Origin: Eledone cirrhosa
Lineage: Eukaryota
DNA: 64,000 bases
Assembly: GCA_964016885.1 (NCBI GenBank)
Contig: OZ024740.1
Location: forward strand, 352,284,001-352,348,000
Direction: 5' to 3'
The translations under genes were made by a program, and so were the position numbers. Positions 26,545 to 64,000 of this stretch are shown here, in pieces; positions within the stretch are counted from its first letter, which is position 1; every line of letters starts with the position of its first letter. Below the pieces are notes generated by a model that worked only from the letters and a program-made list of their open reading frames with translations, searched no databases and had not been told where the DNA came from.

Positions 26545-26673
26545 AAGTGGTTACACAACAGTTAGTTCACCATATCGAGAACAATTGTTTCACCTTAGCG
26601 GATCCTCAGCTTGGACCCGCTAAAGTGAAACAATTGTTCTCGATATGGTGAACTAACTGTTGTGTAACCACTT
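26545..26673. repeat. ~60-bp-arm fold-back between (TA)n tracts, containing a minimal hammerhead-like motif (Penelope-type pLTR remnant)
   Basis: Arms aagtggttacacaacag...gtttcac / gtgaaac...ctgttgtgtaaccactt. Minus strand reads ag-CTGAGGA-tccgctaaggt-GAAA-caattg-TT-ct. Confidence 0.7.
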
Positions 26674-26737
26674 CTACCTAACTCGTCCCATGGACTGGGT
26701 GCTCTACCACTACGGATATTACCTTCCAGTGTTCTAC

Positions 26738-26770
<33 letters not shown>

Positions 26771-26776
<6 letters not shown>

Positions 26777-26985
26777 TAACATTAAAGTTTAAGCAAAGAA
26801 TCGCTGCTTTCGCCCTTAACGGGATCTTCTGAAACTCACAAGATCACGTTAAGGGTGAAAGCACCGATTCTTTGCTTAAACTTTAATCTGTTATTTTAAT
26901 AAATATTTGCTCTACGGTTCTTATATATTTGATATATATTTATCCTTATCGAGGATTTTAGTCTTCAAATTTATTATTATTACTA
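26771..26985. mobile_element. Penelope/retrozyme-like repeat family H as an inverted partial duplication; hammerhead-like motif at 26786-26836 (-)
   Basis: Fold-back at 26771-26900. Same sequence occurs at 29450-29565 and 56390-57065. Embedded in (TA)n. Confidence 0.7.
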
Positions 26986-27578
26986 TATATATATATATAA
27001 AGCGAATATGTTCTATTGTGTAATTCTTCTTTCTTTCAAGATAGAACATTTTCTAAACTAGCCTCATACCTTCCACTATGATGAGGTTGTATAATAATTT
27101 CTTTTAAGATAAGAAAACTGATTCCATTTTTTTTTTCTTCTTTTCTTATAGCCAAAAATTAAATAAAAGAGAGTGAGATGACATGAAAAATTATCAAATT
27201 CCTTTGAGCAGCCAGAGAAATTACTCTGACCAAGTTGATGTATTTTCATTAATGTATCATTGTGCTTAATTAAATATATTATTTGGCCATCACCATGTGA
27301 TAATAATGAATTTCTTTTATTTTACATCATAAAAAATTATTATAGAAATTTCAGTTGAATTTTATCGGTGGATTGGCAGTATCGGTAGAGGGTCGGACGC
27401 CATGCTTTCCAGCATAGTTACGTCCCTTTGCGGTCTGAGTTCAAATCCCGCCGAGGTTAACTTTGCCTTTCATCCTTACGGGGTCGATAAAATAAAGTAC
27501 CAGTAATGTACTAGGTAATTGCTGGCATGGTGCCAAAAGTAGAAACAATTATCTATAAAATTCAATACTACTCCTTTT

Positions 27579-29176: not shown

Positions 29177-30120
29177 TCTATACTATAAAGCTGACGGCCG
29201 TATGCAGGTAACAATCTTTCTGCCAAACGGCTGGACCAAACAGCACCAAATTTGCACCATAGATGTAACTTTTTCCAAGTAAAAAAGTTAGGGTATTTTT
29301 GTCTACTGAATTTTGTTAAAAGATTAAAGACATTATTTAAATATTCACTTCGTTAAAATTTCAAATGTCAACACTTCCGGTTATACGTCCTCACTTTTTC
29401 TTATGATGCCGCACAACATGCTCTGTATGTATGGCTGTCTGCATTACATAACGTTTTTCAAAATATTTACTTCTGCGTTCACAGACGGATTTTTTTTAGT
29501 TTCAGAAGATCCCGTTAAGGGTGAAAGCGATTCTTTGCTTAAACTTTAATCTGTTATTTTAATATATATATTCGTGTACAGATATTTTTGCATACACAAA
29601 AACAAAAACCTATTTATTTCACGAAAGCACAGATGGCTTATCGTCATTGTTACTGTTCGAGGTTAGAGGGCAAAAGTCTATCCAAGATCTGAGAACCATC
29701 AATGGCCATCAATGTTCCACTTACCGTTTGGCTTGCCAGATGCGTTGTATGTTACACGATGACAGCCATTGGCACTTCACCCACGAAAGTCTAGCTGGGG
29801 ACATCCTCCACCGTATACGCAGACACAATCCGAATGTAACATACGATGTTGTTTTCAATGAGGCGCTCATTTGTCTTGAAAACAGTGTCCTGGAGATTGG
29901 TGGTAGGCCTCTAAGTCACTACAGCTTACCTGCTCTTGACAGGAGTGTCCAGAGGTCAACGTCTACAGAGCTTCTTCGCGAGATGAGCTACGAGATCAGT
30001 GCTTCTCCCATGGTCAATTGTATGTAGGATGCTCTAGGGTGAGCTCGCCAAACAATCTCTTCATCTTTGCTCCGGAGGGCCAAACAAAAAATATTTTATA
30101 CTCTGAGGCTCTAACAATGT
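29177..30120 (+). mobile_element. Internally deleted Helitron with a RepHel remnant
   Basis: 5' TCTATACTATAAAGCTG. LLFEVRGQKSIQDLRTINGHQCSTYRLAC..LHDDSHW is joined to the PIF1 C-terminal motif SHGQLYVGCSRV..QTKNILYSEAL. Confidence 0.8.
29498..29545 (+). ncRNA. Putative type I hammerhead ribozyme, variant core (family H)
   Basis: AGTTT-CAGAAGA-t CCC gttaa GGG t-GAA-AGC gattcttt GCT-T-AAACT. Stems I, II and III all pair; predicted CUU cleavage triplet; core has A at U4. Confidence 0.6.
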
Positions 30121-42254: not shown

Positions 42255-42484
42255 TTCTAGATGTTTAGGCATAACCTACTGTAGCAGAAACACGAAATGT
42301 TCAGCTGATAAAGTATTCAGTTCATATAAAATATACAGAGATATCAGATGGACTATCAGCATGGAACAATGAATATTAAAATATTTCTGATAATGACTGT
42401 TCCAAGTTAAAATCCAAATAAACAAATTAATTCATAATATAATATATTATTTGTAGAAAATATTTAACCACGAATATCACATAC

Positions 42485-43393
42485 CTATGGTTTCTCTCCT
42501 GTGTGGATACGTTTGTGTTGAGCTAAATTATCACTTCTAGAGAATGTTTCACTACAGATATCACAGTGGTATGGTCTCTCTCCTGTGTGGATATGCTTGT
42601 GTCTAGCAAAATGACCACTTTGAGAGAATGTTTTACCACATATATCACATTGGTATGGTCTTTCTCCAGTATGAATACGTACATGGACAGACAAATGACC
42701 CTTTGTAGAAAATGTTTCATCACATATATCACATTGGTATGGTTTCTCTCCTGTGTGGATATGTTTGTGATAAGTTAAATTACGTTTTCTAGTGAATGTT
42801 TCACCACAGACATCACAGTGGTATGGCCTTTCTCCTGTGTGAATACGTTTGTGGACAGACAAATCAGCACTTCCAGAAAATGTTTTACCACAGACATCAC
42901 AGTGGTATGGTTTCTCTCCAGTATGAATACGTTTGTGTTGAGTTAAATTATCACTTCTAGAGAATGCTTTATCACAGATTTCACAGTGGTATGGTTTTTC
43001 TCCTGTGTGAATATGTTTGTGGGAAGACAAATGACCATTTCTAGAAAATGATTCACCACAGTTATCACAGTGGTATGGTTTTTCTCCAGTATGAATTCGT
43101 TTGTGTCGAGAGAAACTGCCCTTTAGAGTGAAATTTTTACCACAAATATCACAGCGGTATGGTTTTTCTCCAGAGTGAATACGTTTATGGGAAACTAAAG
43201 TGCTAATATCTGAGAATGTTTTACTGCAGATATCACAGTGGTGTAGTTTTTCTCCTATACAGTTATGACAAGTTAACAAATTCTTTGTAGAGAATAATTT
43301 ACGACATACATCACATGTGTGTGGTTTCATTTCTGTATTTTCCTGTATCTGATTAGCTGAATCAATATTTTTAAGTTTTGCTTTCTCATCCAT
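42485..43393 (-). CDS. C2H2 zinc-finger protein, 9 canonical fingers plus 1 degenerate N-terminal finger, 302 aa
   Basis: Uninterrupted ORF with TGEKP/TGERP linkers. Same MDEK..MKPHTCD leader as gene 1. Confidence 0.93.
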   Translation of the reverse strand: MDEKAKLKNIDSANQIQENTEMKPHTCDVCRKLFSTKNLLTCHNCIGEKLHHCDICSKTFSDISTLVSHKRIHSGEKPYRCDICGKNFTLKGSFSRHKRIHTGEKPYHCDNCGESFSRNGHLSSHKHIHTGEKPYHCEICDKAFSRSDNLTQHKRIHTGEKPYHCDVCGKTFSGSADLSVHKRIHTGERPYHCDVCGETFTRKRNLTYHKHIHTGEKPYQCDICDETFSTKGHLSVHVRIHTGERPYQCDICGKTFSQSGHFARHKHIHTGERPYHCDICSETFSRSDNLAQHKRIHTGEKP

Positions 43394-44905: not shown

Positions 44906-45105
44906 TTATATGGGCAATCTTTCAGTATAACAATTTCACCTGAAATGTTAGATGGTAACTATTTTGTTTTGTTGTAATGTATCTGATTGTTTAGATTGTT
45001 TTAAAGGCGGAATATAAATTTGAGCGATGTTGCCGTGTAAAATATATATATACCATTTCCTCTTTCGCAAACGTCGTTCTTCAAACACGCACATTACTAT
45101 ATTTA

Positions 45106-45460
45106 CGGACACTACAACGCTATTAGCTGTCAGTCCAGTGGAAAACAGGCGAAAGTGACGTCACTCGTCAACATCGTTTATTTCCGTATTACTACCACGC
45201 GTAAGTGGAGTTTTCACGCGTTTTTTTTTTGAGAGAGAGGGAAGACTTAAAAGGGCCAAATTAGAAAACAAGTCATGGTTATAAAGCAGATCGATGTAAG
45301 TGGAGTTATTTAAATGAAAATATAGGTGGCCCTTAAAAGGGCCAAATTAGAAAACAAGTTATGGTTATCAATGTAGAAAACAAGTCATTCATAAATTTAA
45401 GTTTTATAATCAAATTTTTTTCATCAACAAATATGACAGCTAATAGCGTTGTAGTGCCCG
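45106..45460. mobile_element. MITE with 27-bp TIRs
   Basis: CGGACACTACAACGCTATTAGCTGTCA / TGACAGCTAATAGCGTTGTAGTGCCCG; internal direct repeat cttaaaagggccaaattagaaaacaagt (2 copies). Confidence 0.75.
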
Positions 45461-45493
45461 CAATTCTGTACTTTACGTATATTGTGCATAGAT

Positions 45494-45715
45494 ACGAGGG
45501 TTGACAAAGATACTCTCATGGAATGTGACCAAATGAGGTTTATTTTTCAACATAGTCTCCCTTGCGTTCCACACACTTTTTCCATCGGTGTTGCAGTACT
45601 GAGATCAATGTTTTCCTCGGTAGTGGCAGTTGTAGGACGTCCAGACATTGGGTCATCTTCAAGAATCCCCTATCCTTTCCTAAATTCGGCTGCCCACTTT
45701 TGCACAAAGGAAAAT
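45494..45715 (-). mobile_element. Internally deleted mariner fragment
   Basis: TACGAGGG terminus; LQHRWKKCVERKGDYVEK transposase C-terminus; homologous to parts of 5160-6030. Confidence 0.75.
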
Positions 45716-46429
45716 TATGGTACAATATTGTAAGGTCTGCTTATAGCATTATCCATCTTTCAAAAATGAAGGTCCACATTTCGTCGACTTCAATACATTT
45801 TATTACATTTTATTGTATTGTAAACATTAACTTTTATGGAAATTTTATTACAAAATTTCAATTTAGTTCGATTTTTTTGGAATTTATTTAACAAACATGG
45901 AAAAATAAGAAAAAGAATAAAATAAAAAATAATTTGATTGCTTTTAATAAAGAAGATAAATAGAGTGGAACTGATTTCCAGGTCACACTAATGAAACAAG
46001 GTTTTTTCCATTACTGATATTATCTGTCTGCTGCAAGTCCTGGTAGAAGATGCTACACGAACTAAAGTATTTTACTGAAGGACGCAACATGCTGCAGGAT
46101 CGAAGAAACGAGCCCATGACTTTATAATGGTTAGTCCAGTACCGTAACCCCTAAGGCATGTGCCTTCACAGAGGAAAGGTAAATCATATTATAACAGATT
46201 AGATGGGTACTATGTTAATATGTGTCATATTATACCAAAGAGGAAGTGTGTTGTATAATAAACATTGATATCAGGTAGATTCAATAACTACCCGGTCCCA
46301 AATATGAACCCATTAACTTATGGTCGTCAGTCAAACACTTTAACCATTGTATGTATACACGTATGGATGGATGTATGTATGTATGTGTGTATACATGTAT
46401 GCATATATGTAAGTATGTATGCGTGTATG

Positions 46430-49400
46430 AGAACAACTGGAAGGACTTCAGGAGCTCGGTCTATGAGGCTTCAGCAGAGGTCCTTGGCTTTGTCACAAGA
46501 AAACAAGGACTCGTTTGATGAGAATATAACAAAATACTAGTGTGTATGAATATAACAAGGAGACGTAGTTTGTGTGTATAATATTTAATTAACAATTTGT
46601 GGATATATAGAACAGTATAGTTGACATGTCAATGAATAGATGAAAGAATGAAGCAAAGTTATTAGTTACCGTTTTGGTTGCCAGGCGAAGGCCAGGAGTC
46701 GGAAAGGCAAATGAGAGGTAGGGAGCTTAAAGTTGTTCGTTTTATAGGGTTCTGCCGGAAGTGATAAAAAGGGTTCTATCACCTCAACGGGAAGCAACTC
46801 CAGCTACTTCCTGTCTAGAGAGCGTTACTCTATTGGTTATGTGAGTGTCACAACAAGGGAGGCAACTCCTGCTACATTATCTCCCGCCAGATTTTTAAAA
46901 TATAAAAATCGAATGAAATATGTATGTAGTAAGTTGGCGAGAATGTAACGCATGAAAATTACGAAGAAAAAAATGTTTGCAAAAATCAATGATAGATATC
47001 AAGGTAGCCAACCGGTCTTGGCCAGAGAACGACTGGACATCTATCTATCCATCACCCAAAGATACAATGTAATCAAAGTAAGAGAAGAGCTCAAAGTTCA
47101 AATGTACAAAATATAGTTCACAGGTGTGCAATCACATGACAGCAGGAAAGAAAGTGTGTTCCAGAGAATGAATGCAGGTGGTTTCTGTTCTGTGGTATAA
47201 CGTGAAATTTCCAACCTCCGAATAGATTTTCTCACAGGAAGAGTGCTGCAAAAATAAATTCTCTGGCTTGTTCTGCTGGTTTTGGTTGTTGATGAAGCTG
47301 TGTTGCTGTTGATGTTGTTGTCTCGTGGGGTGAGCGTATTCGATGTTTAAATTCACAGTAAAAAAAATTTTTTTTTATAAAAAATGAGTTGCGCAAAGTG
47401 CTAGAAATAACAGCCGAAGTTTATGGTCGATGTTGAGAATGCGTTGACCTGGAAGGGTCAAGAGACCAGCGACCAAAGAAATAAGCATTCTGAATAAATG
47501 CGCAGTTTTCAACGGCAAATTTACGTGGTAAATTTTTAGACCGGCAAATAGGAGAATATAGCTTAAGGCTGGAGAATCCTTGGCGAGAAACGTTATCTCA
47601 TGGCGTGTGACTATCTCAGTGAATCGAGAATTGTGCAGCCTACACGTGCCGATTAAGTTGAAAAAAAAATATTTCTATTGCGCGAGAAAATGGCGCGAAA
47701 ATGATAGTGCAACATGTCGTTGGCAGCCATTTTGAAAAAATGTGTGTGTGAAAGTGACAATGATGAAACAGAAAGAAAGGCTTCACTTAGTATAACAAAT
47801 ATGGCGAGTTCAATTTTTTTTTTTTTTTTTGGTGTGAACTTTGAAAAAAACTTGAACGATGAAGAAAACGATGAAAAAAAAAGGCAATAGTTGAGATTCA
47901 TCGAAAATAAATGTTCCTGTTGAAATGTTTTTTTTTAAATCAATTTCTTTTTTTTTTTTTTAAAGTGTTCGTTGTAAGAAAGCAACGAAAAACATATATA
48001 TATATACAGTGAAATGCGACAGTTAGTTGATGCGTGAGAGAAAAAGAGTCTGTCTGAACGAGAATTTCACATGTGCGTGTGTTCGTTTCTTTGACTGCGT
48101 ATTTTCATAGTTTGTCAATAAAATTTGCTGCGTATTCGTAATGTTACTCACACAACACCAGATTCTGCTATTTTTTTTCTTTTTTCGGGGTCACCACTTA
48201 TAACAAAATACTCGTGTGTATGAATATAACAAGGAGACGAAGTTTGTGTGTATAATATTTAATTAACAATTTGTGGATATATAGAACAGTATAGTTGACA
48301 TGTCAATGAATAGATGAAAGAATGAAGCAAAGTTATTAGTTACCGTTTTGGTTGCCAGGCGAAGGCCAGGAGTCGGAAAGGCAAATGAGAGGTAGGGAGC
48401 TTAAAGTTGTTCGTTTTATAGGGTTCTGCCGGAAGTGATAAAAAGGGTTCTATCACCTCAACGGGAAGCAACTCCAGCTACTTCCTGTCTAGAGAGCGTT
48501 ACTCTATTGGTTATGTGAGTGTCACAACAAGGGAGGCAACTCCTGCTACAAGAATGACCAGGAGGTCAAGGCTCTGCTAGACAGAAAACAAAAGGCACTT
48601 GATGCAGTTCTTAAAGGTGGTAGCTCTGTTGGTGACAATTATGAACGTTACAGACAGGTAAAGAAGGAAGTGCAGGTGAAACTCAGGGCTATGCAAAATA
48701 CCTGGTGGAGCAACAAAGCAGATGAAGTTCAAGTGGCATCTGACGGCAACAATGTGAAACTGCCGCACTTTCTACTCACAGAGGTGTATGGCCCTTTCAG
48801 CTCTCCAGTGGCCCCTTTGAGATCGAAAGATGGCAAGCAATTACTGCGTGACCCAAAAGACACTCGACAGATAGAGAGATCACTTTGATGAGCTCTTAAA
48901 CCAGGTTGATGATGATTTCATTTGTTCCATTCCTATTGAACCAGTGAAGCATATGAGATGGCTAATGTATCTTCTCTTGCAGAGGGGACTTCTGTTGTGC
49001 ATAAGCTGAACTGTGGTAAGTCTCCTGTATGGATGGTCTGAGTGGAGCGGTTTTGAAGTGTGGTGGTGAAAACTTCACGCAGCGCCTGACTGACCTCATG
49101 AAAATGGTGTGGGAAGATGAGAATGTCCCACAAGAAGGATGCACTCATGGTGATTCTCCATAAAGGAAAGGGCGGCAAGGACAAATGTGGCAATTATCAT
49201 GTCATATCCCTTCTTTCAGTAGTTGGTAAAGTCGTGTCGAATATTGATGGATAGATTGATCCCAAGAGTTGCTCTGAATGTGTTGCCTGAGTCGCAGTGT
49301 GGGTTCAGAAACGAAAGAGGAACAGTGGATATGATCGTTTCTGCTCGGCAGCTGCAAGAAAAGTGTATCGAACAATGTATGGACCTTTACCAGGTCTTTG

Positions 49401-50925
49401 TTGACTTGACAAAGGCCTTTGACACTGTCAATTGAACTGCGTTGTGGGAAAAAAATCCAAGGTAGGGTAGAAGATTCTGCATCTTTTCTATGATGACATG
49501 AAGGCTTTGGTCAGTATTGGTGGTAGCATCTCTGAACCAATATCAGTTGAAAATGGAATGAAGCAGGGGGACATTCCGGCTCCAACTCTGTTTTCCTTAT
49601 ATTTTACGATAGTGTTTCTCATGGCATTCAAATATTGTTCTCATGGGGTTTACATCAGGTATCGCACTTCAGGAAGGTTGTTCAACACCAGGCGCTTTGG
49701 TACAAGCACAAAAGTATTAACATCTATAATCCGAGAGTTTTTGTATGCAGACGACTGTGATCTTTTTGCACACTCACAAAGTGACATGCAGCATATTATG
49801 AACTCTTTTTCTGCAGCTTGCAGCACTTTGGGCGTCACAATAAGCTTGGAAAAGACTGTTGTGATGTATCAGGAAACGAGTACACTGCACCAAGTGTGTA
49901 CGTGTACGGAAAGAGGCTAAAAGTTGCTGACAAGTTTGTTTACCTTGGTAGTACGTTGAACACTTCATGCACACATGATAATGAAATATCCTTAAGAATC
50001 AAGAAAGCCAGTGATGCTTTTGGACGGCTGCATCAACGTTTATGGTCCAGACGAGGTATCACTATCAAAACCAAGGTGAAAGTGTATCTGACTTGTGTCG
50101 TCTCCTCTTTACTTTATGTTTGTGAAACGTGGGTCATATACAGAAAGCACCTCAAGGATCTGGAGAGATTTCACCAACACTCTCTTCATAAGTTACTTGG
50201 GGTGTGGTGGAAAATGTTCGCCAGTGATTTGGAAGTTCTAGAACGGAGCAGGTGCGTGACTATAGAGAGCATAATCTTTCGGTATCGGTTGAGGTGGTGC
50301 AGTCACGTGGTCCGGATGTCTGATGATCGTATTCCAAAGCAACTTCTCTATGGAGAACTGTGTGAAGGAAGGAGACCACCATATAAACCAAAAAGGCGGT
50401 ACCGGGACTGTGTCAGGGGCACCTTGGCTTGTGCTCTAATTTCATCTGACGAATGGGAGAAAATGGCTGACGAGCGTGTGAAGTGGAGACGTTTGATCAA
50501 GTCAGGTGGTGAACACTTTGAAACTCGTCGGAGAGAACACCTAACACTGAAAAGGAAGGTGAAGATTGAGACTGTTCTGAACTGCCTGCTGTTGAACATC
50601 ATCTGGTTTGCCAGCACTGTGGTCGAGTCAGCCTGAGCAAAGTTGGTTTGATTAGACATGAACAAAGTCATATCAGTACACCTCCTGTAGATCATGATCT
50701 GAAAAGGTGTAAGAAATGTACAAGCATGGGAGGTCTTAAAAGATACATGTGAACATACAGCCAGAACAAAGCAATGGAAGGTTTCGGGGGAGCCTAAAGT
50801 TGCCATGTATGTGCCAGAGGGTGCAAGTATTTGGCTGGTTTAAAGAGTCACATTTGTGCTTCACATTTTTGAACATTTTATCGGGCGATGGCAATACTTG
50901 AACACGAGTTTTCAGCCATCATGTA
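46430..50925 (+). mobile_element. Decayed RTE-BovB-like LINE, split by the LTR element at 46525-48550
   Basis: DSFDE|NDQEVKALLDRK reads through once the insertion is removed. Also LPESQCGFR, FVDLTKAFDTV, KQGDIPAPTLF, LYADDC, RIPKQLLYGEL. Confidence 0.92.
46525..48550 (-). mobile_element. Young non-autonomous LTR retrotransposon (Gypsy-like; TRIM/LARD type)
   Basis: 352-bp LTRs at 46525-46876 and 48199-48550 with only 2 differences seen; TG...TA ends; 4-bp TSD AGAA; PBS TGGTGACCCCGA (48185-48196, tRNA-Trp); PPT-like TGGCGGGAGATAA; 1322-bp interior without a long ORF. Confidence 0.92.
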
Positions 50926-50929
50926 GTAT

Positions 50930-51545
50930 GTATGTCGGGTCACTCTTGAGTGCTATTGGTAACATGTAACCCAGTACAACCTGTCGCATGGTCGGGTCGT
51001 CGGCGACTAAACCGGCAACCCCACCAAGTTTACTTGGTGAGGAGGGTGATTTGGGACATCCTGCAGGACAAAAAACAAAACCTGACAAAGGGCGGAAGAT
51101 CTCATAAGAGTCAACAGCCATCCAAAAGTGTGTAAACATGTACATATGTATGTATATGTATATATACATGGGTGCATGTGTATGTACATGCACAGGGACA
51201 TAGAAATAATCGGGCTGGACACCCGATCGCGCAGTAAACCACTGGGAGTGAAGGACCCCTAGCCTTTGTCAGGGCATTCTTCTAGGAGAAGGCAACTCAG
51301 GAAACTGGGATAACTCTGATATAAAACCTGCGGCTCAGTAGTTACCGATGATGTTGATATTTTCTTCTTTTCGGGTTATAGCTACTGTCGCTCAGAGAGT
51401 GGGATTGGCTCAGTGCATAGTCTTTCCTCATTTAAAAAAAATCTTCATGCACAGGCATTGCACGATAGAATTAATTAATAATTATTAATAATGGTATATC
51501 GTGCAATGGCCATACTCGATAACGAGGAGGCAGCCATCATGTATG
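50930..51545 (+). mobile_element. Bipartite non-autonomous RTE derivative (5' UTR + 3' tail)
   Basis: RTE 5'-UTR-like motif tctaggagaaggcaactc..aaacc. 3' end atggccatactcgataacgaggaggcagccatcatgta resembles the adjacent LINE tail atggcaatacttgaacacgagttttcagccatcatgta. Confidence 0.6.
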
Positions 51546-51551
51546 CATGTA

Positions 51552-51611
<60 letters not shown>

Positions 51612-51739
51612 CATGTGGGTGTGTATATATATATCTCCATATACATATTTATTCAGCTGATATAGGCTGGATTGGTTGGAATATCCTGACGCGAATTCTT
51701 TCTGCTCTGTTAAATCGAAACAAATCTTGACTTTTTATT

Positions 51740-52400
51740 TGAGGTTTTCTATATAAGAGACCGGGAGACCATGTTGATACTATGAAGGCCATTTGTCCTA
51801 AGCCGCCTGGACTATTGCTCCCAGCTGTGGTCACCCCATAGTATCAAACTAACCACGGAACTTGAGACAATCCAACGAAGCTACACCAAGAGGATTGCAC
51901 GATGAAGGAGATGAGCTACTGGGAGAGGCTAAAAGAACTGAAACTCTACTCCTTGGAATGAAGACAGGACGAGATACGCAGTGATATACATATGGAAAAT
52001 CCTGGAGGGACTAGCGCCAAACTTTGGTATTGAGAGTGGGACCAACCCCCGAACAGGACGTCACTGTGTGGTGACAAAGGTCCCGTCTTCCACATCTAGA
52101 ACAAGAAGCAGATATTGCAATAGACTGGGGTTCAAAGGCCCTCAACTCTTCAACAAACTGCCGAGGGATTTGAGAGATCTACATGGTGTGGCCGTGGATA
52201 TTTTCAAGAAACTTCTCAACACCCTGTTAGCCAGGATCCCGGATGAGCCCACATCACGGTACGAAGGTAACCTAAGGGCAGCAGCAACGAACTCCCTCTT
52301 ACATCAATGACCAGCCAACACAGGCTGGAGATAGAATGTGTAGCAACAAGGGCAGTGCCCAATCATGGTCTCAGCCAGATGGCTGGAACAGCTAAAAGAG
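51740..52400 (+). mobile_element. CR1/L2-group LINE 3' end (an inverted fragment of the same family at 55180-55463)
   Basis: RLDYCSQLWSP, MSYWERLKELKLYSLE, IYIWKILEGLAPN, GPQLFNKLP, IPDEP. Confidence 0.85.
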
Positions 52401-52659
52401 TATATATATATATATTTAATATAGAAATGGCTTCAACGGGACTAGAACTGTTTCATTCGGAGGAAATCATCAGAAAAGCCGACTGTCAATGTAATATGGT
52501 GGTATTTATACATTTTCTGGTGGTAGGGGAGGGTAGTAAATTGATGCTAAGTAGACAAACACATACACACTGACAGCACTCCTAATTTTCAAGATTCATT
52601 TATTCCAAACAAAGGATTTTCATTGAGTGGCAATATTAAAATGCTCTGCTAAAAGATAT

Positions 52660-52682
52660 AAATATGTATGTGTGTGTTTGTG

Positions 52683-52717
<35 letters not shown>

Positions 52718-52752
52718 TTGTGTATACATATATATATATATGTGTGTTTGTG

Positions 52753-52785
<33 letters not shown>

Positions 52786-52825
52786 TTGTGTGTATATATA
52801 TATGTGTGATGTGTGTGTGTGTGCA
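52660..52825. repeat. (TA)n/(TG)n compound microsatellite (a similar tract at 51545-51630)
   Basis: Seen directly; explains the cluster of spurious ORFs here. Confidence 0.95.
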
Positions 52826-53650
52826 AATTTCAATAATATTAAGACACCCTAATGGGGGTTAAACGCCCTATAGTGAAAAGTTTGGCCAATAAATGGAACA
52901 AGATTTTACAAACTCCTCCTATGGTTTTGGAGATAGACCCCCAAAACCATATATATTCTGAAACTACATTGCCCAGGGTACTTGTATAAGTATATTTCAT
53001 TTTAATCAAAGGGTTCATCGGGGCCACAAAACCGCCGCTGAAACTTTACCTTCAATTTATATGAAATTTAAACCATAGGTAAATGACAAGATATGATGCC
53101 TATTCACATCATTTCAGCAAATTTCAATAAAATTACAATACCCTAATGGGGTTTAAACCCCCTATTAGGGTTCACCAGGGGGCACAAAATCCCCGCTGAA
53201 AATTTTTTTGGTTCGATTTATATGCAATTTAAACCATAGATAAATGAAGAGATATGATGCCTATTCACAAAATTTCAATACTATAAGATACCTTAATGGT
53301 GGTTAAACCCCCTATTAGGGTTCCCCGGGGGTACAAACCCCCGCTGAAAACGTTTCCCTTTCGATTTATATGAAACTTAAACCATAGGTCAATGACAAGA
53401 TATGATGCCTATTCAATAAAGTTTTCAATTGATATTTTGAAAAAAGTTATTTACAAGAATAAGATTTAATAATGCAATTTTGATTTGATATATTACAAAA
53501 AATGATGTTTTCCAATTTTTCATGCATTATATTTTACATTGAGTAATATTGAGTTTTTCTCCATAAATTATATCACTGATTTAAAATCAATCATCATTTT
53601 CTTACAAAAAAAATGTGTGAAACGCAGCAAGGCGCTGGTAATCCGGCTAG
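52825..53650 (+). mobile_element. Probable non-autonomous Helitron with three ~150-bp internal repeats
   Basis: 3' hairpin CAGCAAGGCGCTG followed by CTAG|T; repeats carry the palindrome ccctaatggggtttaaaccccctattaggg. Confidence 0.6.
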
Positions 53651-53689
53651 TATATATATGTGAGTGTGTGTGTATATATATGTATGTGT

Positions 53690-54680
53690 GTGTGCTCATT
53701 ATGTAGGAGAGGTGTAGGTAGAAACTCCATCCTCTGCCCCATATGCAAACTATGGGTACACAAGAGATGTAGTGGGATCTCAGGAAGTTTAGTTAAGAAT
53801 GTAGGCTTTACATGTAGCAGTTGCACCAGGACAGTAAGCAGAAAACAATCACTGAAAACAAGTGACATCAAAGTCTGGAAGGACTTGGTAAAAACAATAC
53901 CGAATTAGCAGCGGAGGGGGGGGGGGTTCTGAAAGAACGGGATGGAAGAAGTTGAGGGAGCTACTGCCACAGCTGGATACAAAAGGCTTTTCCCTCAGAA
54001 TAAAAGGTAGACTGTATGATGTGTGCATATGAAAGGCAATGTTGCATGGTAGTGAGAGCTGGGCGCTGTGTGTAGAAGACTTGCGTAGATTAGAAAGGAA
54101 TGAAGCTTGTATGCTCCGATGGATGTGTAATAGTAATATACGCGAACAGCAAAGCATAAACAAACTGAAAGAGAAACTAGGCATAAGAGGAATCAAATGT
54201 TGTGTGCAGGAGAGGAGATTATGTTGGTATGGACATGTGATTCGTATAAAGGATGACAGCTACATAAAGTCCCAGAAAGACTTGAGATGAAGTGATAAAA
54301 GCCGACCTTGCCCAATTGCACCTCTGAAAGACAATGACACAGGACCAAGATCTCTGGCGTTATGAGGTAATACAGAAACCCCAACTTCCCACGGGCCCAG
54401 GCCAAGGCTGAACATACATACAGTATGCACTACTCCATCCCACCCACCAATATACCTTTCATGAGAACAGGCCGAAACACTGTAAAGTGGTCGCGATGGT
54501 GACACAGTAAAAAACACCCAGTCCACACTGTAAAGTAGTCGTGGAGGAATCACAACAAAAAACACCCAGTACTCACTGTAAATGAGCTTGGCATTAGGAA
54601 GGGCATCCAGCTGTAGAAACCAAGCCAAAATCAGTTCTTTATGAGCAAGATATGGTCACCTGACCTAACATTGCCAACAA
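53690..54680 (+). mobile_element. RTE LINE 3' portion, same family as 30670-32250
   Basis: CSLCRRGVGRNSILCPICKLWVHKRC, MLHGSESW, RRLCWYGHV, then the 3'-UTR subrepeats. Confidence 0.88.
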
Positions 54681-54685
54681 TAGAA

Positions 54686-55060
54686 GGCACATGGCTCAGT
54701 GGTTAGAGCATTAGGCTTGCAATTGAAAGGTTGTGAGTTTAATTCTCGGACCGGGTGATGTGTTGTTTCCTTGAGCAAGACACTTTATTTCACATTGCTC
54801 CAGTTTACTCAGCTGTAGAAATGAGATGATAGGACTGGGGTCCCTATCATTCCACTGCAAAGTGGTCGTGGAGGTGCCACGGCAAAAAAAAAAACACCCA
54901 GCACTCACTGTAAATGTGGTTGGTGTTAGGAAGGGCATCCAGCTGTAGAAATCAAGACAGAATCAGTTCCCATATGAGCAAGACAAGGTCAGCCGACCGG
55001 ACACTGCCCACAACAGGACAACCCATGCTAGCGTAGAACTGACATAAAATGATGATGATG
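54686..55060 (+). mobile_element. tRNA-derived SINE family B (CORE/V-like centre + RTE 3' tail)
   Basis: A box TGGCTCAGTGG, B-box-like GAGTTTAATTC, CCTTGAGCAAGACACTT core, RTE-type tail ending (GAT)n. Confidence 0.8.
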
Positions 55061-55464
55061 AAATATAACAGAGTTTTATAGCTTGCTTGAAGCATTGATG
55101 AATAGGAAACACAAATTTAAATTTTGAAAACCTAGTTGAGGGCCTTTGAACCCCAGGCTATTGCAATAGCTGCTCTAGATTCTAGATGTGGAAGACGGGA
55201 CCTTTGGTACCACACAGTGACATCCTGTTCGAGAATTGGTCCAGCTCTCGATGCGAAAGTTTGATCTTAGTCCCCCCAGGATTTTCCATATGTATATCAT
55301 TGCATATCTCTCCTGTCTTCATTCCGAGGAGTAGAGTTTCAGTTCTTTTAGACTCTCCCAGTAGTTTATCTCCATCGTGGCAACCTTCTTGGTGTAGCTT
55401 CCTTGGATTGCTTCAAGCTCCATGGTTAGTTTGATACTATGGGGGTGACCACAGCTGGGAGCAT

Positions 55465-56200
55465 TCATCATCATTTCATTTTACGTCCACTTTTTCCCTG
55501 CTTGCAAGGGTGGGACGGGAACTGATTCTGGCTTGATTTCTACAGCTGGATGCCCTTCCTAACACCAACCTCATTTACAGTGAGTGCTGGGTGCTTTTTT
55601 TCCCCGTGGCACCTCCACATCCACTTTACAGTGTGGGCTGGGTTCTTTTTTTCCCTGTGGCACCTCCACGACCACTTTGCAGTGGAATGATAGGGACCCC
55701 AGTCCTATCATCTCATTTCTACAGCTGAGTAAACTAGAGCAATGTGAAATAAAGTGTCTTGCTCAAGGAAACAACACATCACCCGGTGTGAGATTTGAAC
55801 TCACAACCTTTCGATTCCAAGGCCAATGCTCTCAATCCGTATGTATATATATATATAGTGGAGGCACATGGCTTAGTGGTTAGAGCATTGGCCTTGCAAT
55901 CGAAAGGTTGTGACTTCAATTCTCAGATCGGGTGATGGGTTGTTTCCTTGAGCAAGACACTTTATTTCACATTGCTCCAGTTTACTCAGCTGTAGAAATG
56001 AGATGATAGGGACTGGGATCCATATCATTCCACTGCAAAGTGGTCGTGGAGGTGCCACGGCAAAAAAAGCACCCAGCACTCACTGTAAATGAGGTTGGTG
56101 TTAGGAAGGGCATCCAGCTGTAGAAATCAAGCCAGCATCAGTTCCCGTCCCACCCTTGCAAGCAGGGAAAAAGCAGACGTAAAATGAAATGATGATGAAA
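55465..56200. mobile_element. Two SINE family B copies head-to-head (55465-55835 minus; 55860-56200 plus)
   Basis: Highly similar reverse-complement copies separated by a short TA-rich spacer. Confidence 0.85.
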
Positions 56201-56225
56201 ATGACACATATATAAACTAATATGT

Positions 56226-56262
<37 letters not shown>

Positions 56263-56389
56263 GTAATAATTGTTTCTACTTTAGGCACAAGGCCAGCAAT
56301 TACCCAGTGCATTACTGGTACTTTATTTTATCGACCCCGTAAGGATGAAAGGCAAAGTCAACCTCGGCGGGATTTGAACTCAGATCGTA

Positions 56390-57065
56390 AACTTTAATCT
56401 GTTATTTTAATCTGTTATTTTAATAAATATTTGCTCTACGGTTCTTATATATTTGATATATATTTATCCTTATCGAGCCCTCTTTGGATGTTAGTCTTCA
56501 TATATATAGTAATAATAATACATATGAAGACTAACATCCAAAGGGGGCTCGATAAGGATAAATATATATCAAATATATAAGAACCGTAGAGCAAATATTT
56601 ATTAAAATAACAGATTAAAGTTTAAGCAAAGAATCGGCTGCTTTCACCCTTAATGGGATCTTCTGAAACTAAAAAAAAAAATCAATCTGTGAACGCAGAA
56701 GTAAATATTCGAAAAACGTTGCAACCAAAGGAAGACAGGAAGACGATACTTTGGTTCATGGAGACGTAGTTTTAGGTATTTCTACCTGCTTGGTACGGGT
56801 ATCTTCTTTGTAGAAATATTCAGATGTTTCTGCATGATGAATATAAGTCAATAGAGTACTCAGTCAAGGGAGACAAATAGTAATAATAATAAATTTGAAG
56901 ACTAACATCCAAAGAGGGCTTGATAAGGATAGATATATATCAAATATATAAGAACCGTAGAGCAAATATTTATTAAAATAACAGATTAAAGAATCGGCTG
57001 CTTTCACCCTTAATGGGATATTCTGAAACTAAAAAAAATCAATCTGAACGCAGAAGTAAATATTT
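56390..57065 (-). mobile_element. Family H Penelope/retrozyme-like element: partial tandem (371-bp period) plus inverted terminal copy; hammerhead-like motif at 56619-56670 (-)
   Basis: gaagactaacatccaaag at 56526 and 56897. 56410-56502 is the reverse complement of about 56523-56620. Confidence 0.7.
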
Positions 57066-57169
57066 CTAAGCTGATCTTTCCCAAATGCACCTCTCAAGGG
57101 CAATGACACACGACCATGACCTCTGGCGTCACACAGTAATACAGAAGACCCGACTTTCCACAGGAATAT

Positions 57170-60100
57170 ATAGGCAATATTTGTTTTCCTTTGTTTTTTT
57201 ATGTCCTATCATCTAATCCGACCTCCAAAATGATTGCAATTGACTATTTTTTTAGCATATTAACAACAAATAGAATTTCCACTGCAATTAAAAATGACTA
57301 GCTTTGTAAATGCTATTTCCACCCACATCCTCCCTCTTTTTTCTACAAAGCTAGTCATTTTCATCAGGTTTCCATGTCATAACCATTGATAATATGTGCA
57401 TAAAATAGTAATTTGCAAGCACCATTTATGTCAAATTGGGTGGTAAGCACACACAAAAAAAAAAAAAAAAATGCCAAATGAAAATTTGTCACACCAAAAT
57501 CAATAGCTTGCTGTGATGTAGTATGGTGTGGTTTGGTGAAGTTTCTACAAAGATAGTCATTTTTGACAGATTTCCATGTCATAATTATTGATATGTGAAA
57601 AAAAAAAAAAAAATTTGGAAGCACCTTTAATGTCAGATTCGGTGGTAAGCACACAGAAAAAAAGAAAAGCCAACGGGAAAAACATTTTTCACACCAAGAT
57701 CAATAGCTTGGTGCGATGAAGTATGGTGTAACTTGGTTTGGTTTGGTTTGGTGAAGTTATGAAATGGAAACCAATTGTAATTAATAAATTGTAGATTAAT
57801 GTGCTGTGGTGTGCTTTATTATATGTGAGGATTTAAATTTCCACTTTGATTTATGCTAGAAAAAATATTTTTCCTCTATTTTTGCACGTGCTATCAACTT
57901 CCAAGAAGCTCGCAGTGGACTATGCTTTTAGCATATTAACAAAAAATATGACTTCCGCTGCAATAAAAAATGACTAGCTTTGTAAATGTTATTTCCACCC
58001 ACATCCTCCCTCTTTTTTCTACAAAGCTAGTCATTTTCATCAGGTTTCCATGTCCTAACCATTGATAATATGTGCATAAAATAGTAATTTGCGAGCACCT
58101 TTTATGTCAAATTGGGTGGTAAGTACAATAAAAAAAAAAAAATGCCAGATGGAAATTTGTAACACCAAAATCAATATCTTGGCGTGATGTAGTATGGTGT
58201 GATTTGGTGAAGTTTCTACAAAGATATCCATTTTCGACAGGTTTCCATGTCATAATTATTGATAAGTGGGAAAAAAATAATCGATTGGGAGCAACTTTAA
58301 TGTCCGATTGGGTGGTAAGCACACAAAAAAAAAAAAAAGGAAACGGGAAGAACATTTTTCACACCAAGATCAATAGCTTGGTGTGATGCAGTATGGTGTA
58401 ACTTGGTATGGTGTAGTTTGGTTTGGTTTACTTATGAAATGGAAACCAATTGTAAACGATAGATTCCCATGTCATATTCATTGATAATGTGTGGGAAAAT
58501 AGTCATTTGCAAGCACCTTTGATGTTAGTTTGAGGTGGTAACCACAAAAAAAAAAGAGCAGGTAGCAAATTTGTCATATTGATGTCCATACCATGGTGTG
58601 ATGTAAATGGTATGAGTAAGTGTTCTGTAATAAATTTACCATATAGTGAAGTATGGTTATGGTGTGGATTGGGGTAGATTAATGTGCTGTGGTGTGCTTT
58701 ATTATATGTGAGGATTTAAATTTCCACTTTGATTTATGTTAGAAAAAATATTTTTCCTCTATTTTTGCACGTGCTATCAACTTCCAAGAAGCTCGCAGTG
58801 GACTATGCTTTTAGCATATTAACAAAAAATATGACTTCCGCTGCAATAAAAAATGACTAGCTTTGTAAATGTTATTTCCACCCACATCCTCCCTCTTTTT
58901 TCTACAAAGCTAGTCATTTTCATCAGGTTTCCATGTCATAACCATTGATAATATGTGCATAAAATAGTAATTTGCGAGCACCTTTTATGTCAAATTGGGT
59001 GGTAAGTACAATAAAAAAAAAAAAATGCCAGATGGAAATTTGTAACACCAAAATCAATATCTTGGCGTGATGTAGTATGGTGTGATTTGGTGAAGTTTCT
59101 ACAAAGATATCCATTTTCGACAGGTTTCCATGTCATAATTATTGATAAGTGGGAAAAAAATAATCGATTGGGAGCAACTTTAATGTCCGATTGGGTGGTA
59201 AGCACACAAAAAAAAAAAAAAGGAAACGGGAAGAACATTTTTCACACCAAGATCAATAGCTTGGTGTGATGCAGTATGGTGTAACTTGGTATGGTGTAGT
59301 TTGGTTTGGTTTACTTATGAAATGGAAACCAATTGTAAACGATAGATTCCCATGTCATATTCATTGATAATGTGTGGGAAAATAGTCATTTGCAAGCACC
59401 TTTGATGTTAGTTTGAGGTGGTAACCACAAAAAAAAAAGAGCAGGTAGCAAATTTGTCATATTGATGTCCATACCATGGTGTGATGTAAATGGTATGAGT
59501 AAGTGTTCTGTAATAAATTTACCATATAGTGAAGTATGGTTATGGTGTGGATTGGGGTAGATTAATGTGCTGTGGTGTGCTTTGTTATAAGTGAGGATTT
59601 AAATTTCCACTTTGATTTATGTTAGAAAAAATATTTTTCCTTCATTTTTGCACGTGCTATCAACTTCCTAGAAGCTCGCAGTGGACTATGCTTTTAGCAT
59701 ATTAACAAAAAATATGACTTCCGCTGCAATAAAAAATGACTAGCTTTGTAAATGGTATTTCCACCCACATCCTCCCTCTTTTTTCTACAAAGCTAGTCAT
59801 TTTCATCAGGTTTCCATGTCATAACCATTGATAATATGTGCATAAAATAGTAATTTGCGAGCACCTTTTATGTCAAATTGGGTGGTAAGTACAGAAAAAA
59901 AAAAAAAAAAAAAAATGCCAGATGGAAATTTGTCACACCAAAATTAATATCTTGGCGTGATGTAGTATGGTGTGATTTGGTGAAGTTTCTACAAAGATAT
60001 CCATTTTCGACAGGTTTCCATGTCATAATTATTGATAAGTGTGAAAAAAATAGTCGATTGGGAGCAACTTTAATGTCAGATTGGGTGGTAAGCGCACAAG

Positions 60101-63100
60101 AAAAAAAGAAAACGCAACGGGAAAAAAATTTTTCACACCAAGATCAATAGCTTGGTGTGATGCAGTATGGTGTAACTTGGTATGGTGTAGTTTGGTTTGG
60201 TTTACTTATGAAATGGAAACCAATTGTAAACGATAGATTCCCATGTCATATTCATTGATAATGTGTGGGAAAATAGTCATTTGCAAGCACCTTTGATGTT
60301 AGTTTGAGGTGGTAACCACAAAAAAAAAAGAGCAGGTAGCAAATTTGTCATATTGATGTCCATACCATGGTGTGATGTAAATGGTATGAGTAAGTGTTCT
60401 GTAATAAATTTACCATATAGTGAAGTATGGTTATGGTGTGGATTGGGGTAGATTAATGTGCTGTGGTGTGCTTTATTATATGTGAGGATTTAAATTTCCA
60501 CTTTGATTTATGCTAGAAAAAATATTTTTCCTCTATTTTTGCACGTGCTATCAACTTCCAAGAAGCTCGCAGTGGACTATGCTTTTAGCATATTAACAAA
60601 AAATATGACTTCCGCTGCAATAAAAAATGACTAGCTTTGTAAATGTTATTTCCACCCACATCCTCCCTCTTTTTTCTACAAAGCTAGTCATTTTCATCAG
60701 GTTTCCATGTCATAACCATTGATAATATGTGCATAAAATAGTAATTTGCGAGCACCTTTTATGTCAAATTGGGTGGTAAGTACAATAAAAAAAAAAAAAT
60801 GCCAGATGGAAATTTGTAACACCAAAATCAATATCTTGGCGTGATGTAGTATGGTGTGATTTGGTGAAGTTTCTACAAAGATATCCATTTTCGACAGGTT
60901 TCCATGTCATAATTATTGATAAGTGGGAAAAAAATAATCGATTGGGAGCAACTTTAATGTCCGATTGGGTGGTAAGCACACAAAAAAAAAAAAAAGGAAA
61001 CGGGAAGAACATTTTTCACACCAAGATCAATAGCTTGGTGTGATGCAGTATGGTGTAACTTGGTATGGTGTAGTTTGGTTTGGTTTACTTATGAAATGGA
61101 AACCAATTGTAAACGATAGATTCCCATGTCATATTCATTGATAATGTGTGGGAAAATAGTCATTTGCAAGCACCTTTGATGTTAGTTTGAGGTGGTAACC
61201 ACAAAAAAAAAAGAGCAGGTAGCAAATTTGTCATATTGATGTCCATACCATGGTGTGATGTAAATGGTATGAGTAAGTGTTCTGTAATAAATTTACCATA
61301 TAGTGAAGTATGGTTATGGTGTGGATTGGGGTAGATTAATGTGCTGTGGTGTGCTTTGTTATAAGTGAGGATTTAAATTTCCACTTTGATTTATGTTAGA
61401 AAAAATATTTTTCCTTCATTTTTGCACGTGCTATCAACTTCCTAGAAGCTCGCAGTGGACTATGCTTTTAGCATATTAACAAAAAATATGACTTCCGCTG
61501 CAATAAAAAATGACTAGCTTTGTAAATGGTATTTCCACCCACATCCTCCCTCTTTTTTCTACAAAGCTAGTCATTTTCATCAGGTTTCCATGTCATAACC
61601 ATTGATAATATGTGCATAAAATAGTAATTTGCGAGCACCTTTTATGTCAAATTGGGTGGTAAGTACAGAAAAAAAAAAAAAAAAAAAATGCCAGATGGAA
61701 ATTTGTCACACCAAAATTAATATCTTGGCGTGATGTAGTATGGTGTGATTTGGTGAAGTTTCTACAAAGATATCCATTTTCGACAGGTTTCCATGTCATA
61801 ATTATTGATAAGTGTGAAAAAAATAGTCGATTGGGAGCAACTTTAATGTCAGATTGGGTGGTAAGCACACAAGAAAAAAAGAAAACGCAACGGGAAAAAA
61901 ATTTTTCACACCAAGATCAATAGCTTGGTGAGATGAAGTATGGTGTAACTTGGTTTGGTTTGGTTTGGTGAAGTTATGAAATGGAAACCAATTGTAAACG
62001 ATAGATTCCCATGTCATATTCATTGATAATGAGTGGGAAAATAGTCATTTGCAAGCACTTTTGATGTTAGTTTGAGGTGGTAACCACAAAAAAAAAAAGA
62101 GCAGGTAGCAAATTTGTCACATTGATGTCCATACCATAGTGTGATGTAAATGGTATGAGTAAGTGTTCTGTAATAAATTTACCATATAGTGAAGTATGGT
62201 TATGGTGTGGATTGGCGTAGATTAATGTGCTGTGGTATCCTTTGTTATAAGTGAGGATTTAAATTTCCACTTTGATTTATGTTAGAAAAAATATTTTTCC
62301 TCTAATTTTGCACGTGCTATCAACTTCCTAGAAGCTCGCAGTGGACTATGCTTTTAGCATATTAACAAAAAATATGACTCCGGCTGCAATAAAAAATGAC
62401 TAGCTTTGTAAATGGTATTTCCACCCACATCCTCCCTCTTTTTTCTACAAAGCTAGTCATTTTCATCAGGTTTCCATGTCATAACCATTGATAATATGTG
62501 CATAAAATAGTAATTTGTGAGCACCTTTTATGTCAAATTGTGTGGTAAGTACAAAAAAAAAAAAAAAATAAAAAAAAATATGCCAGATGGAAATTTATCC
62601 CACCAAAATCAATATCTTGGTGTGATGTAGTATGGTGTGGTTTGGTGAAGTTTCTACAAAGATAGTCATTTTCGACAGGTTTCCATGTCATAGTTATTGA
62701 TAAGTGGGAAAAAAATAGTCAATTGGGAGCAACTTTAATGTCAGATTGGGTGGTAAGCACACAAAAAAAAAAAAGGAAACGGGAAGAAAATTTTTCACAC
62801 CAAGATCAATAGCTTGGTGTGATGTAGTATGGTGTAACTTGGTTTGGTTTGGTTTGGTTTGGTTTGATTTGATTTGGTTTGGTGAAATTATGAAATGGAA
62901 ACCAACTGTAAACGATAGATTCCCATGTCATATTCATTGATAATGTGTGGGAAAATAGTCATTTGCAAGCACCTTTGATGTTAGTTTGAGGTGGTAACCA
63001 CAAAAAAAAAAGAGCAGGTAGCAAATTTGTCACATTGATGTCCATACCATGGTGTGATGTAAATGGTATGAGTAAGTGTTCTGTAATAAATTTACCATAT

Positions 63101-63830
63101 ACTGAAGTATGGTTATGGTGTGGATTGGGGTAGATTAATGTGCTGTGGTGTGCTTTGTTATAAGTGAGGATTTAAATTTCCACTTTGATTTATGTTAGAA
63201 AAAAGTTTTTCCTTCATTTTTGCATGTGCTATCAACTTCCAAGAAGCTCGCAGTGGTCTATGCTTTTGGCATATTAACAAAAAATATGACTTCCACTGCA
63301 ATAAAAAATGACTAGCTTTGTAAATGGTATTTCCACCCACTTCCTCCCTCTTTTTTCTACAAAGCTAGTTATTTTCATCAGGTTTCCATGTCATAATTAT
63401 TGATAATATGTGCATAAAATAGTCAATTGCGAGCACCTTTAATGTCAGATTGGGTGGTAAGAACACACACACACAAAAAAAAAAGAAACAGGAAGAAAAT
63501 TTTTCACACTGTGATCAAAAGCATGGTGTGATGTAGAATGATGTAGTTTGTTATGGTGTGGTTTGGATTGTTGGAGTTATGACATGAGAACCTATTGCAA
63601 ATGATAGGTTTCCATGTTGATAACACATTGATAATGTAACACATTGATAATGTTACACATTGATAATGTGTAAAAAAATAGTCATTTGTGAGCACCTTTG
63701 ATATCAGATTGGGTGGTAAGCACACACACACAGTAAAAAAAAAAACAGGAAGAAAAATGTTCTCACTGAGATTAAGAGCATGGTATGATGTAGTATGGTG
63801 TAGTTTAATGTGGTATGGTTTTCCAAGCTC
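57170..63830. repeat. Higher-order satellite, about 7.5 units of 883-913 bp built from ~195-bp monomers
   Basis: Marker gtagattaatgtgctgtgg at 57791, 58674, 59557, 60448, 61331, 62217, 63130. Identical spurious ORFs recur at 883- and 1774-bp spacing. Confidence 0.95.
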
Positions 63831-64000
63831 CAACATGCTCACAGCCGACTATGCTTTTACCATCATCATCATCATTTTACGTCCACTTTTCCCTGCTTGC
63901 AAGGGTGGGACGGGACCTGATTCTGGCTTGATTTCTACAGCTGGATCATTCTACAGCTGGATGCCCTTCCTAACACCAACCTCATTTACAGTGAGTGCTG

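Follow-up and report, generated by a model that had tools for sequence, protein, structure and literature searches.

Little cargo is usually ascribed to natural cut-and-paste elements of eukaryotes, and giant units bounded by terminal inverted repeats (TIRs) are not unheard of, as in the case of Teratorn and of the FB-flanked TE of Drosophila. In the portions of the cited papers available to us, Merlin elements are described with GG ends, inverted repeats of 24-462 bp and a TSD of 8-9 bp (PMC8101967), while animal Pack-TIRs are reported to carry a median cargo of 224 bp (PMC8277862) and Pack-MULEs a cargo under 7 kb (PMC6431247). The word 'Merlin' occurs nowhere in the main text, as available, of the latter two papers, and the available part of an Octopus vulgaris annotation counts 11 recent Merlin insertions, 29 kb in total (PMC13282606). 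Penelope-like elements (PLEs) of the Hydra clade are described, in the available sections of Craig et al. 2021 (PMC8557442), as bearing canonical hammerheads and as being generally shorter than 3 kb.

An earlier note on the window, i.e. the whole 64,000-nt stretch of DNA analysed here, had recognised a tandem hammerhead repeat with a period of 371 bp (family H) and had proposed it to be a non-LTR retrozyme. The analysis reported here leads to a different reading: the 371-bp repeat is very probably a PLE pLTR plus the start of the PLE body, lying inside a 30.9-kb Merlin-ended element, its likely carrier to at least 86 loci.

The 371-bp unit and its parent element

The arrangement seen earlier on the minus strand, about 1.5 tandem units with a period of 371 plus an inverted piece (56406-56507), was recovered, the copies at 57064-56877 and 56709-56506 being direct repeats with 89% identity. 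By numbering the unit from position 1 (56876) to position 371 (56506), the following features were assigned:

56506..56767, minus strand: downstream copy of the pLTR of a putative Hydra-clade PLE (unit 110-371), with 90% identity to the pLTRs of the full-length copies L274 and L249
56768..56876, minus strand: start of the PLE body, 109 bp, comprising leader, ATG at 56835 and codons 1-23 of the RT-EN ORF
56877..57064, minus strand: upstream copy of the pLTR, 5'-truncated at unit position 168, with a broken hammerhead (G8 changed, 11-bp deletion)
56619..56670, minus strand: type I hammerhead-shaped motif with a U4A core (A4 at 56664; predicted cut 56624/56623)
56406..56507, plus strand: inverted 3' part of the pLTR, a 102-bp arm
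26764..26990, unstranded: free pieces of the family-H pLTR, inverted relative to each other and flanked by (TA)n tracts
29450..29569, plus strand: free piece of the family-H pLTR, the end of which is at unit position 282, in (TA)n

By its sequence, the 371-bp unit is a PLE pLTR (262 bp) followed by the first 109 bp of a PLE body, ORF start codon included; the two meet at 56768/56767, and in the window copy the ORF start is interrupted by a stop at codon 18. The internal segment is thus not the non-coding spacer it had been taken for, since 56876-56768 corresponds to the 5' start of the PLE body. The earlier note had itself named PLE coding sequence in this segment as the outcome that would speak against its proposal, and this is largely what was found, but from the 5' end of the ORF rather than from the 3' end. 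Splicing was rejected as an origin of the junction, the GT donor being absent. The inverted arm, previously counted as part of the element, is present at the window locus only (one of 30 loci) and is likely a local fold-back duplication. As to the proposed presence of family H at three sites of the window, the pieces at 26764-26990 and 29450-29569 bear it out, but the 371-bp unit itself occurs at only one of the three.

The suspected relationship to Penelope was substantiated. Specifically, a free family-H copy has a GIY-YIG frame 1 kb upstream, and 26 of the 29 GIY-YIG loci found with that protein carry the repeat downstream, at a distance of 91-1166 bp and on the same strand. The full-length copies L274 and L249 read pLTR, unit 1-109, ORF, about 840 bp, pLTR. 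The search for an autonomous PLE (RT + GIY-YIG) with the same pLTR, recommended earlier as a check, yielded an intact partner in the genome, L261, whose open ORF of 709 aa contains RT and GIY-YIG as read from motifs; a single ORF with RT followed by GIY-YIG between pLTRs is found in L261, L249 and L274. A Pfam search with the 709-aa ORF gave no significant match. The motifs recognised are DKT, RWR (instead of RWK), CxCx5C, CxxC and CxH, and the targets are (TA)n. The canonical hammerhead of Hydra-clade pLTRs is lacking in family H, in which the fold is present with a U4A core. All together, family H fits the pLTR of an autonomous Hydra-clade PLE, the clade being assigned from the motifs and the (TA)n targets. 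Among 20 evenly spaced family copies, taken from the first 100 listed, one is a mini-unit (see below) and the other 19 are PLE 3' ends, 5'-truncated or internally deleted. At L218, L228 and L235 the endonuclease end lies 91-95 bp from the pLTR, which identifies a propagated PLE subfamily with a short 3' UTR.

The motif at 56670-56619, described earlier as intact, can be folded with a stem I of 5 bp, a stem II of 3 bp over a U.U, a stem III of 5 bp and the triplet CUU. A type I hammerhead-shaped fold can therefore be drawn, but the conserved U4 is an A, so that the core at 56665-56659 reads CAGAAGA against the consensus CUGANGA. The other copy, near 57030-56985, is broken as had been reported (CAGAATA and the 11-bp deletion). 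The hammerhead-shaped fold lies 1.7 kcal/mol above the minimum-energy fold, the folding energy of the region is no better than that of shuffles (z 0.44), and no Rfam hammerhead matched the region at gathering or E-value thresholds. Rfam miRNA matches were attributed to a local palindrome.

A4 (CAGAAGA) is the master state of family H. When exact core patterns were searched in the whole genome, A4 was matched 21,379 times, U4 101 times and C4 or G4 132 times, and the reversed controls not at all; U4 is therefore no commoner than expected from random change. Beside the endonuclease loci, the motif reads CAGAAGA in 34 of 37 cases and U4 in none of the 37, while U4 is kept in other hammerhead families at the sampled loci of the same genome. 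In the two diverged relatives compared, the core is truncated or decayed. In the available parts of the respective papers, every single change in CUGA gave low activity in a mutational scan (PMC9901934), a viroid hammerhead survives with U4C and a U.U at stem II is tolerated (PMC3088659), an active axolotl retrozyme has a U.U where its stem II begins, at the base (PMC7229834), and the hammerhead of an anole PLE needed protein, its catalytic mutants having no effect on in vitro insertion (PMC11167929). No natural U4A core with an activity test was found in the literature consulted, including section 8 of PMC3088659 as available to us. Cleavage by the U4A hammerhead would probably be weak or absent; the motif need not be dead, given that U4C is tolerated in the viroid and that the PLE hammerhead is protein-assisted.

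Two other hammerheads were observed in the neighbourhood, both in inverted pairs: one beyond the window, at L031:7000-7340, with a canonical CUGAAGA core and the same CUU triplet, and one of another family at window positions 26547-26680, with a canonical CTGAGGA core, the same U.U at the base of stem II and a location between (TA)n tracts.

A probable Merlin-type carrier around the repeat

The end of the element had been placed at 57065. The flanks, however, turned out to be common to other loci over tens of kb: the best-matching 371-bp loci also share flanks with the window, the interval 53.5-62.5 kb of which is common to all nine other 20-kb loci, and several of them reach 45110. In most loci the similarity begins at, or a few bases from, an inverted repeat. 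The structure in the window is as follows:

45100..45107, plus strand: left TSD, 8 bp, TATTTACG; its counterpart on the right stands just after the inverted repeat of that side, 12 kb past the window
45108..64000, unstranded: giant Merlin-type element, 30.9 kb, continuing to G000:C1:352360040 (L032:2040)
45108..45132, plus strand: left terminal inverted repeat, 25 bp, with GG ends in most copies and GA here
45434..45458, minus strand: internal copy of the inverted repeat, forming with the left end a 350-bp MITE-like cap
46526..48550, unstranded: later insertion (gap 46525/48551 in other copies spanning the point)
48551..55857, plus strand: cargo common to copies, with decayed LINE fragments (RVT_1 at 49471-49917), SINEs, microsatellites and a 148-bp tandem
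57066..64000, unstranded: cargo common to copies, with the leader and a 197/883-bp satellite block

Two copies of TATTTACG enclose the 25-bp inverted repeats at 45108 and L032:2040, which are separated by 30.9 kb. The cargo consists of decayed LINEs, SINEs, satellites and degenerate TTAGGG tracts. Neither a host gene in the cargo nor a Merlin transposase in the window copy was found. A CACTA identity, considered for a CACTAC motif, was rejected since GG lies outside the motif and the TSD measures 8 bp.

Several side observations concern this region. Direct repeats of about 350 bp, seen by eye near both ends of 46526-48550, give this insertion an LTR-like appearance, and the block with the 148-bp tandem (52830-53650) ends, also by eye, in a short hairpin and CTAG, presumably a Helitron-like end. 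A long inverted pair of a tRNA-derived SINE occupies 55500-56160, and of its two arms only one aligns collinearly with the other copies of the carrier. On the minus strand, 45304-45348 matches the Rfam histone 3' stem-loop (34.5 against a gathering score of 34) within a Merlin subterminal repeat, probably by chance. Beyond the window, the carrier contains a degenerate TTAGGG tract at L031:5400-5750 (16 of 24 TTAGGG words) beside long minisatellites, and part of the cargo may be subtelomere-like; a GIY-YIG fragment of another PLE family lies at L032:7-483, minus strand, and showed no link to family H. Outside the carrier, 84-bp tandem arrays at 11092-11746 and 42454-43256 have the appearance of coding repeats for C2H2 zinc fingers.

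The carrier's left and right ends were matched on the basis of their positions, giving 17 pairs, of which five were dropped (one end unrecognised) and to which three were later added. In 12 of the resulting 15 pairs the TSDs match at 7-8 of 8 positions (seven at 8/8, five at 7/8; one match lies in (TA)n), and the remaining three match poorly (1, 4 and 6 of 8), while only 2 of 210 mismatched cross-pairings reach that level. The TSD-supported copies measure 4.7-48 kb, with most interiors read in part, and 10 of the 12 have a listed junction inside. With respect to the transposase, L037 bears a PF12762 (DDE_Tnp_IS1595) match (E 7e-14) 545 bp inward from the same right end. In two TSD-bounded copies a transposase gene lies 4-5 kb from the 371-bp repeat: it is frameshifted in the 20.0-kb copy, and it is an open frame of 301 aa in the 48.2-kb copy, whose interior was read in part. 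Open transposase frames in carrier copies measure 301 and 303 aa. The link between transposase and carrier is based on L037, L129 and the TSD-bounded copies; among the best 20 PF12762 loci the carrier's inverted repeat is found in one and most have other ends, which indicates several Merlin families in the genome. Genome-wide, the Merlin transposase has at least 150 matches, and in many of these the frame is open over 300-340 aa. With its 25-bp inverted repeats, GG-ended in most copies, its 8-bp TSD and DDE_Tnp_IS1595 with the same ends, the carrier is, judging from these sequence features, a Merlin-type giant element, with a subfamily that includes the transposase gene.

The exact 371-bp junction has 100 matches in the 3.0-Gb assembly, hand-grouped into 86 loci; the pattern recovers 23 of 29 loci selected by the pLTR, hence the true number would be about 110 or more. 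Twenty-eight of the first 30 junction matches abut the carrier's leader, and the other two are L279, in a TIR-bounded copy, and L281, a locus with the leader on a looser test. A comparable result was obtained with loci chosen by the pLTR alone, 28 of 29 having the carrier leader. Carried pLTRs are 97.4% alike, compared to 94.0% between carried and free pLTRs (27 carried, 10 free), and the junction loci in the carrier agree both in being 5'-truncated at position 168 and in the alleles of their last pLTR. The longer tandem arrays sought at the suggestion of the earlier note do exist, but only up to 3.5 units: most arrays have 1.5 units, and 2.5-3.5 are found in 8 of 29 distinct loci. Middle pLTRs of arrays bear first-pLTR alleles in all 11 cases, a pattern that fits a DNA crossover and a hammerhead-cut circle equally. 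In addition, some junction copies are spaced 156-215 kb apart, on C211 (141706, 301377, 457531, 629354) and C5 (12474637-13036275), and may reflect very large tandem or segmental duplications that include the carrier.

Free mini-units and the proposed history

A gapped pattern retrieved 78 short junctions. Sorting by hand assigned 39 of them to the type found in the carrier, and the remaining 39, which are of other types, belong to 32 loci. The carrier's leader is absent from all 31 of these 32 loci that were examined, which display 22 different junctions and units of 352-373 bp. Donors lie at +106..+123, a cluster partly imposed by the pattern, which was restricted to donors near +100..+125 and to acceptors no higher than 121; at L204 the donor is at +184. 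Acceptors fall at positions 116-121 in 29 of 31 loci and almost never at 90-115, though the pattern allowed them there. The same junction recurs in both inverted arms at L346, L356 and L361, in tandem at L355, and in tandem as well as in both arms at L354 (four copies, one slightly different). Furthermore, 3 of the 20 evenly sampled family copies have their 5' boundary at 116-121. The window junction, +112/110 in L274 numbering, lies within the range of the free mini-units. These free mini-units seem to derive from the recopying of one short RNA with ends other than the CUU site, and the pattern fits a covalent circle, end-to-end jumping or a later duplication in DNA alike. No paper on PLE template jumping was found in our literature search. 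The 371-bp unit appears to be one more of the many mini-tandems made by the PLE, with junctions at presumed RNA ends, away from CUU.

On this basis a history in three steps can be proposed. The PLE RT would have copied a short RNA that began at about unit 110-121, took in the pLTR and ended at about +106..+123 of the body. By an end-to-end jump or on a circle, the enzyme would have gone round this RNA again, leaving pLTR-body-pLTR in (TA)n. The DNA between two Merlin ends, a structure directly seen here, would then have moved as one piece, mobilised by Merlin transposase that was provided either in trans or from the gene-carrying subfamily. Finally, the arrays of 2.5-3.5 units and the window's inverted arm would have arisen later in DNA. 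The hammerhead, likely weak or inactive owing to U4A, was likely unneeded for any of these steps.

A more ambitious version holds that Merlin transposase has repeatedly moved natural cargoes of 20-48 kb, some of them including the transposase gene, as a giant composite family of at least 100 copies. It further holds that one passenger documents the birth of retrozymes: the Hydra PLE would copy repeatedly around an RNA of 350-375 nt from its own 5' end, with non-hammerhead ends, and the new tandems would be single-locus dead ends, unable to release monomers on account of U4A. We give this combination slightly less than even chances. Carriage by Merlin competes with the idea that the blocks of 20-48 kb are ordinary segmental duplications ending near Merlin MITEs by chance. 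A cargo that is a patchwork of old repeats, of variable length, and the regular spacing of some copies would suit such duplications, which are nevertheless hardly credible given that each copy has its own 8-bp duplication and that similarity starts at or near the inverted repeat in most loci. As to the first step only, and compatibly with carriage by Merlin, a full-length PLE might have suffered a one-off internal deletion, whether at the DNA level or through a single long jump of the RT, the free mini-units being the same accident repeated and no short or circular RNA being involved. A 3-kb deletion would indeed leave pLTR-5' body-pLTR, the window locus has a single junction and other internal deletions exist; yet acceptors pile up at 116-121 and spare 90-115, single insertions repeat one junction in tandem and in both inverted arms, and the 116-121 boundary reappears in the evenly sampled copies, so that we regard this deletion as unlikely, although with appreciable weight.

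Under the retrozyme proposal itself, a 371-nt monomer would be cut at the CUU site and made circular, the PLE enzymes would insert it again, and one copy would also have been captured by Merlin. The retrozyme-sized tandem units, the type I fold, the arrays of up to 3.5 units, the middle-unit alleles and the U.U at stem II shared with the active axolotl retrozyme are in line with it. We consider it very improbable, since all 30 inspected junction loci lie in the Merlin-type carrier, all share the truncation at 168 and the last-pLTR alleles, the core is U4A and the spacer is ORF sequence; a non-LTR retrozyme family is accordingly not what the copies of this part-coding unit represent.

Comparison with known systems

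If the reading as a PLE repeat in a Merlin-ended carrier is correct, Merlin, with its TSD-bounded copies of 17-48 kb, would be able to transport large cargo in nature and would give rise to dispersed 'segmental duplications'. With a PLE present in more than 21,000 copies and a U4A core, one could ask in a natural setting whether cleavage is required of PLE hammerheads. In the locus-specific mini-tandems, retrozyme-like units would be seen to form from the 5' end of a PLE, making the proposed PLE origin of retrozymes testable. The case also calls for caution, as a dispersed hammerhead tandem can be the passenger of another element.

The carrier resembles Merlin in its GG termini, 25-bp inverted repeats, 8-bp TSD and DDE_Tnp_IS1595 beside the same end (PMC8101967, as available), and differs in that copies of 4.7-48 kb hold captured repeats, most of those inspected are without transposase, and the ends consist of a MITE-like cap or of two right-type ends. 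No giant Merlin was found in the literature consulted; these families may be listed in Repbase or in the supplements of the papers on Octopus vulgaris, Merlin, Pack-TIRs and Hydra. With Pack-TIRs and Pack-MULEs, as described in the available text, the carrier has in common host DNA between inverted repeats, multiplied by transposition, whereas it is far larger and no host gene was identified in its cargo.

Compared to Hydra-clade PLEs (PMC8557442, available part), family H shares the single ORF, the C-terminal GIY-YIG, DKT, RW(K/R), the CxCx5C linker, CxxC, CxH, pLTRs, inverted insertions and (TA)n, and differs in having U4A fixed and a length of 3.3-3.5 kb with pLTRs.

Metazoan non-LTR retrozymes, in the available parts of PMC7229834 and of the preprint 10.64898/2026.07.22.740005, resemble the 371-bp unit in their tandem units of a few hundred bp (here 371 bp, within the 150-450 bp expected, in 1.5-3.5 units), type I fold, AT-richness and derivation from PLE pLTRs. 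In contrast, the 371-bp unit shows no complete type I hammerhead (CUGANGA...GAAA...UH) in consecutive units, its core being CAGAAGA with the second copy broken, and is not a non-coding unit outside an autonomous element, as the ORF start lies inside it. It has no free family and no independent monomer insertions, the 30 inspected of 100 matches all being in one carrier, and it was likely spread by a DNA transposon, its junctions lying off the cleavage site. In conclusion, the 371-bp unit resembles, by analogy, the first step of the proposed PLE origin of retrozymes (preprint 10.64898/2026.07.22.740005; PMC4209133; PMC7229834), as far as the available parts of these sources describe it.
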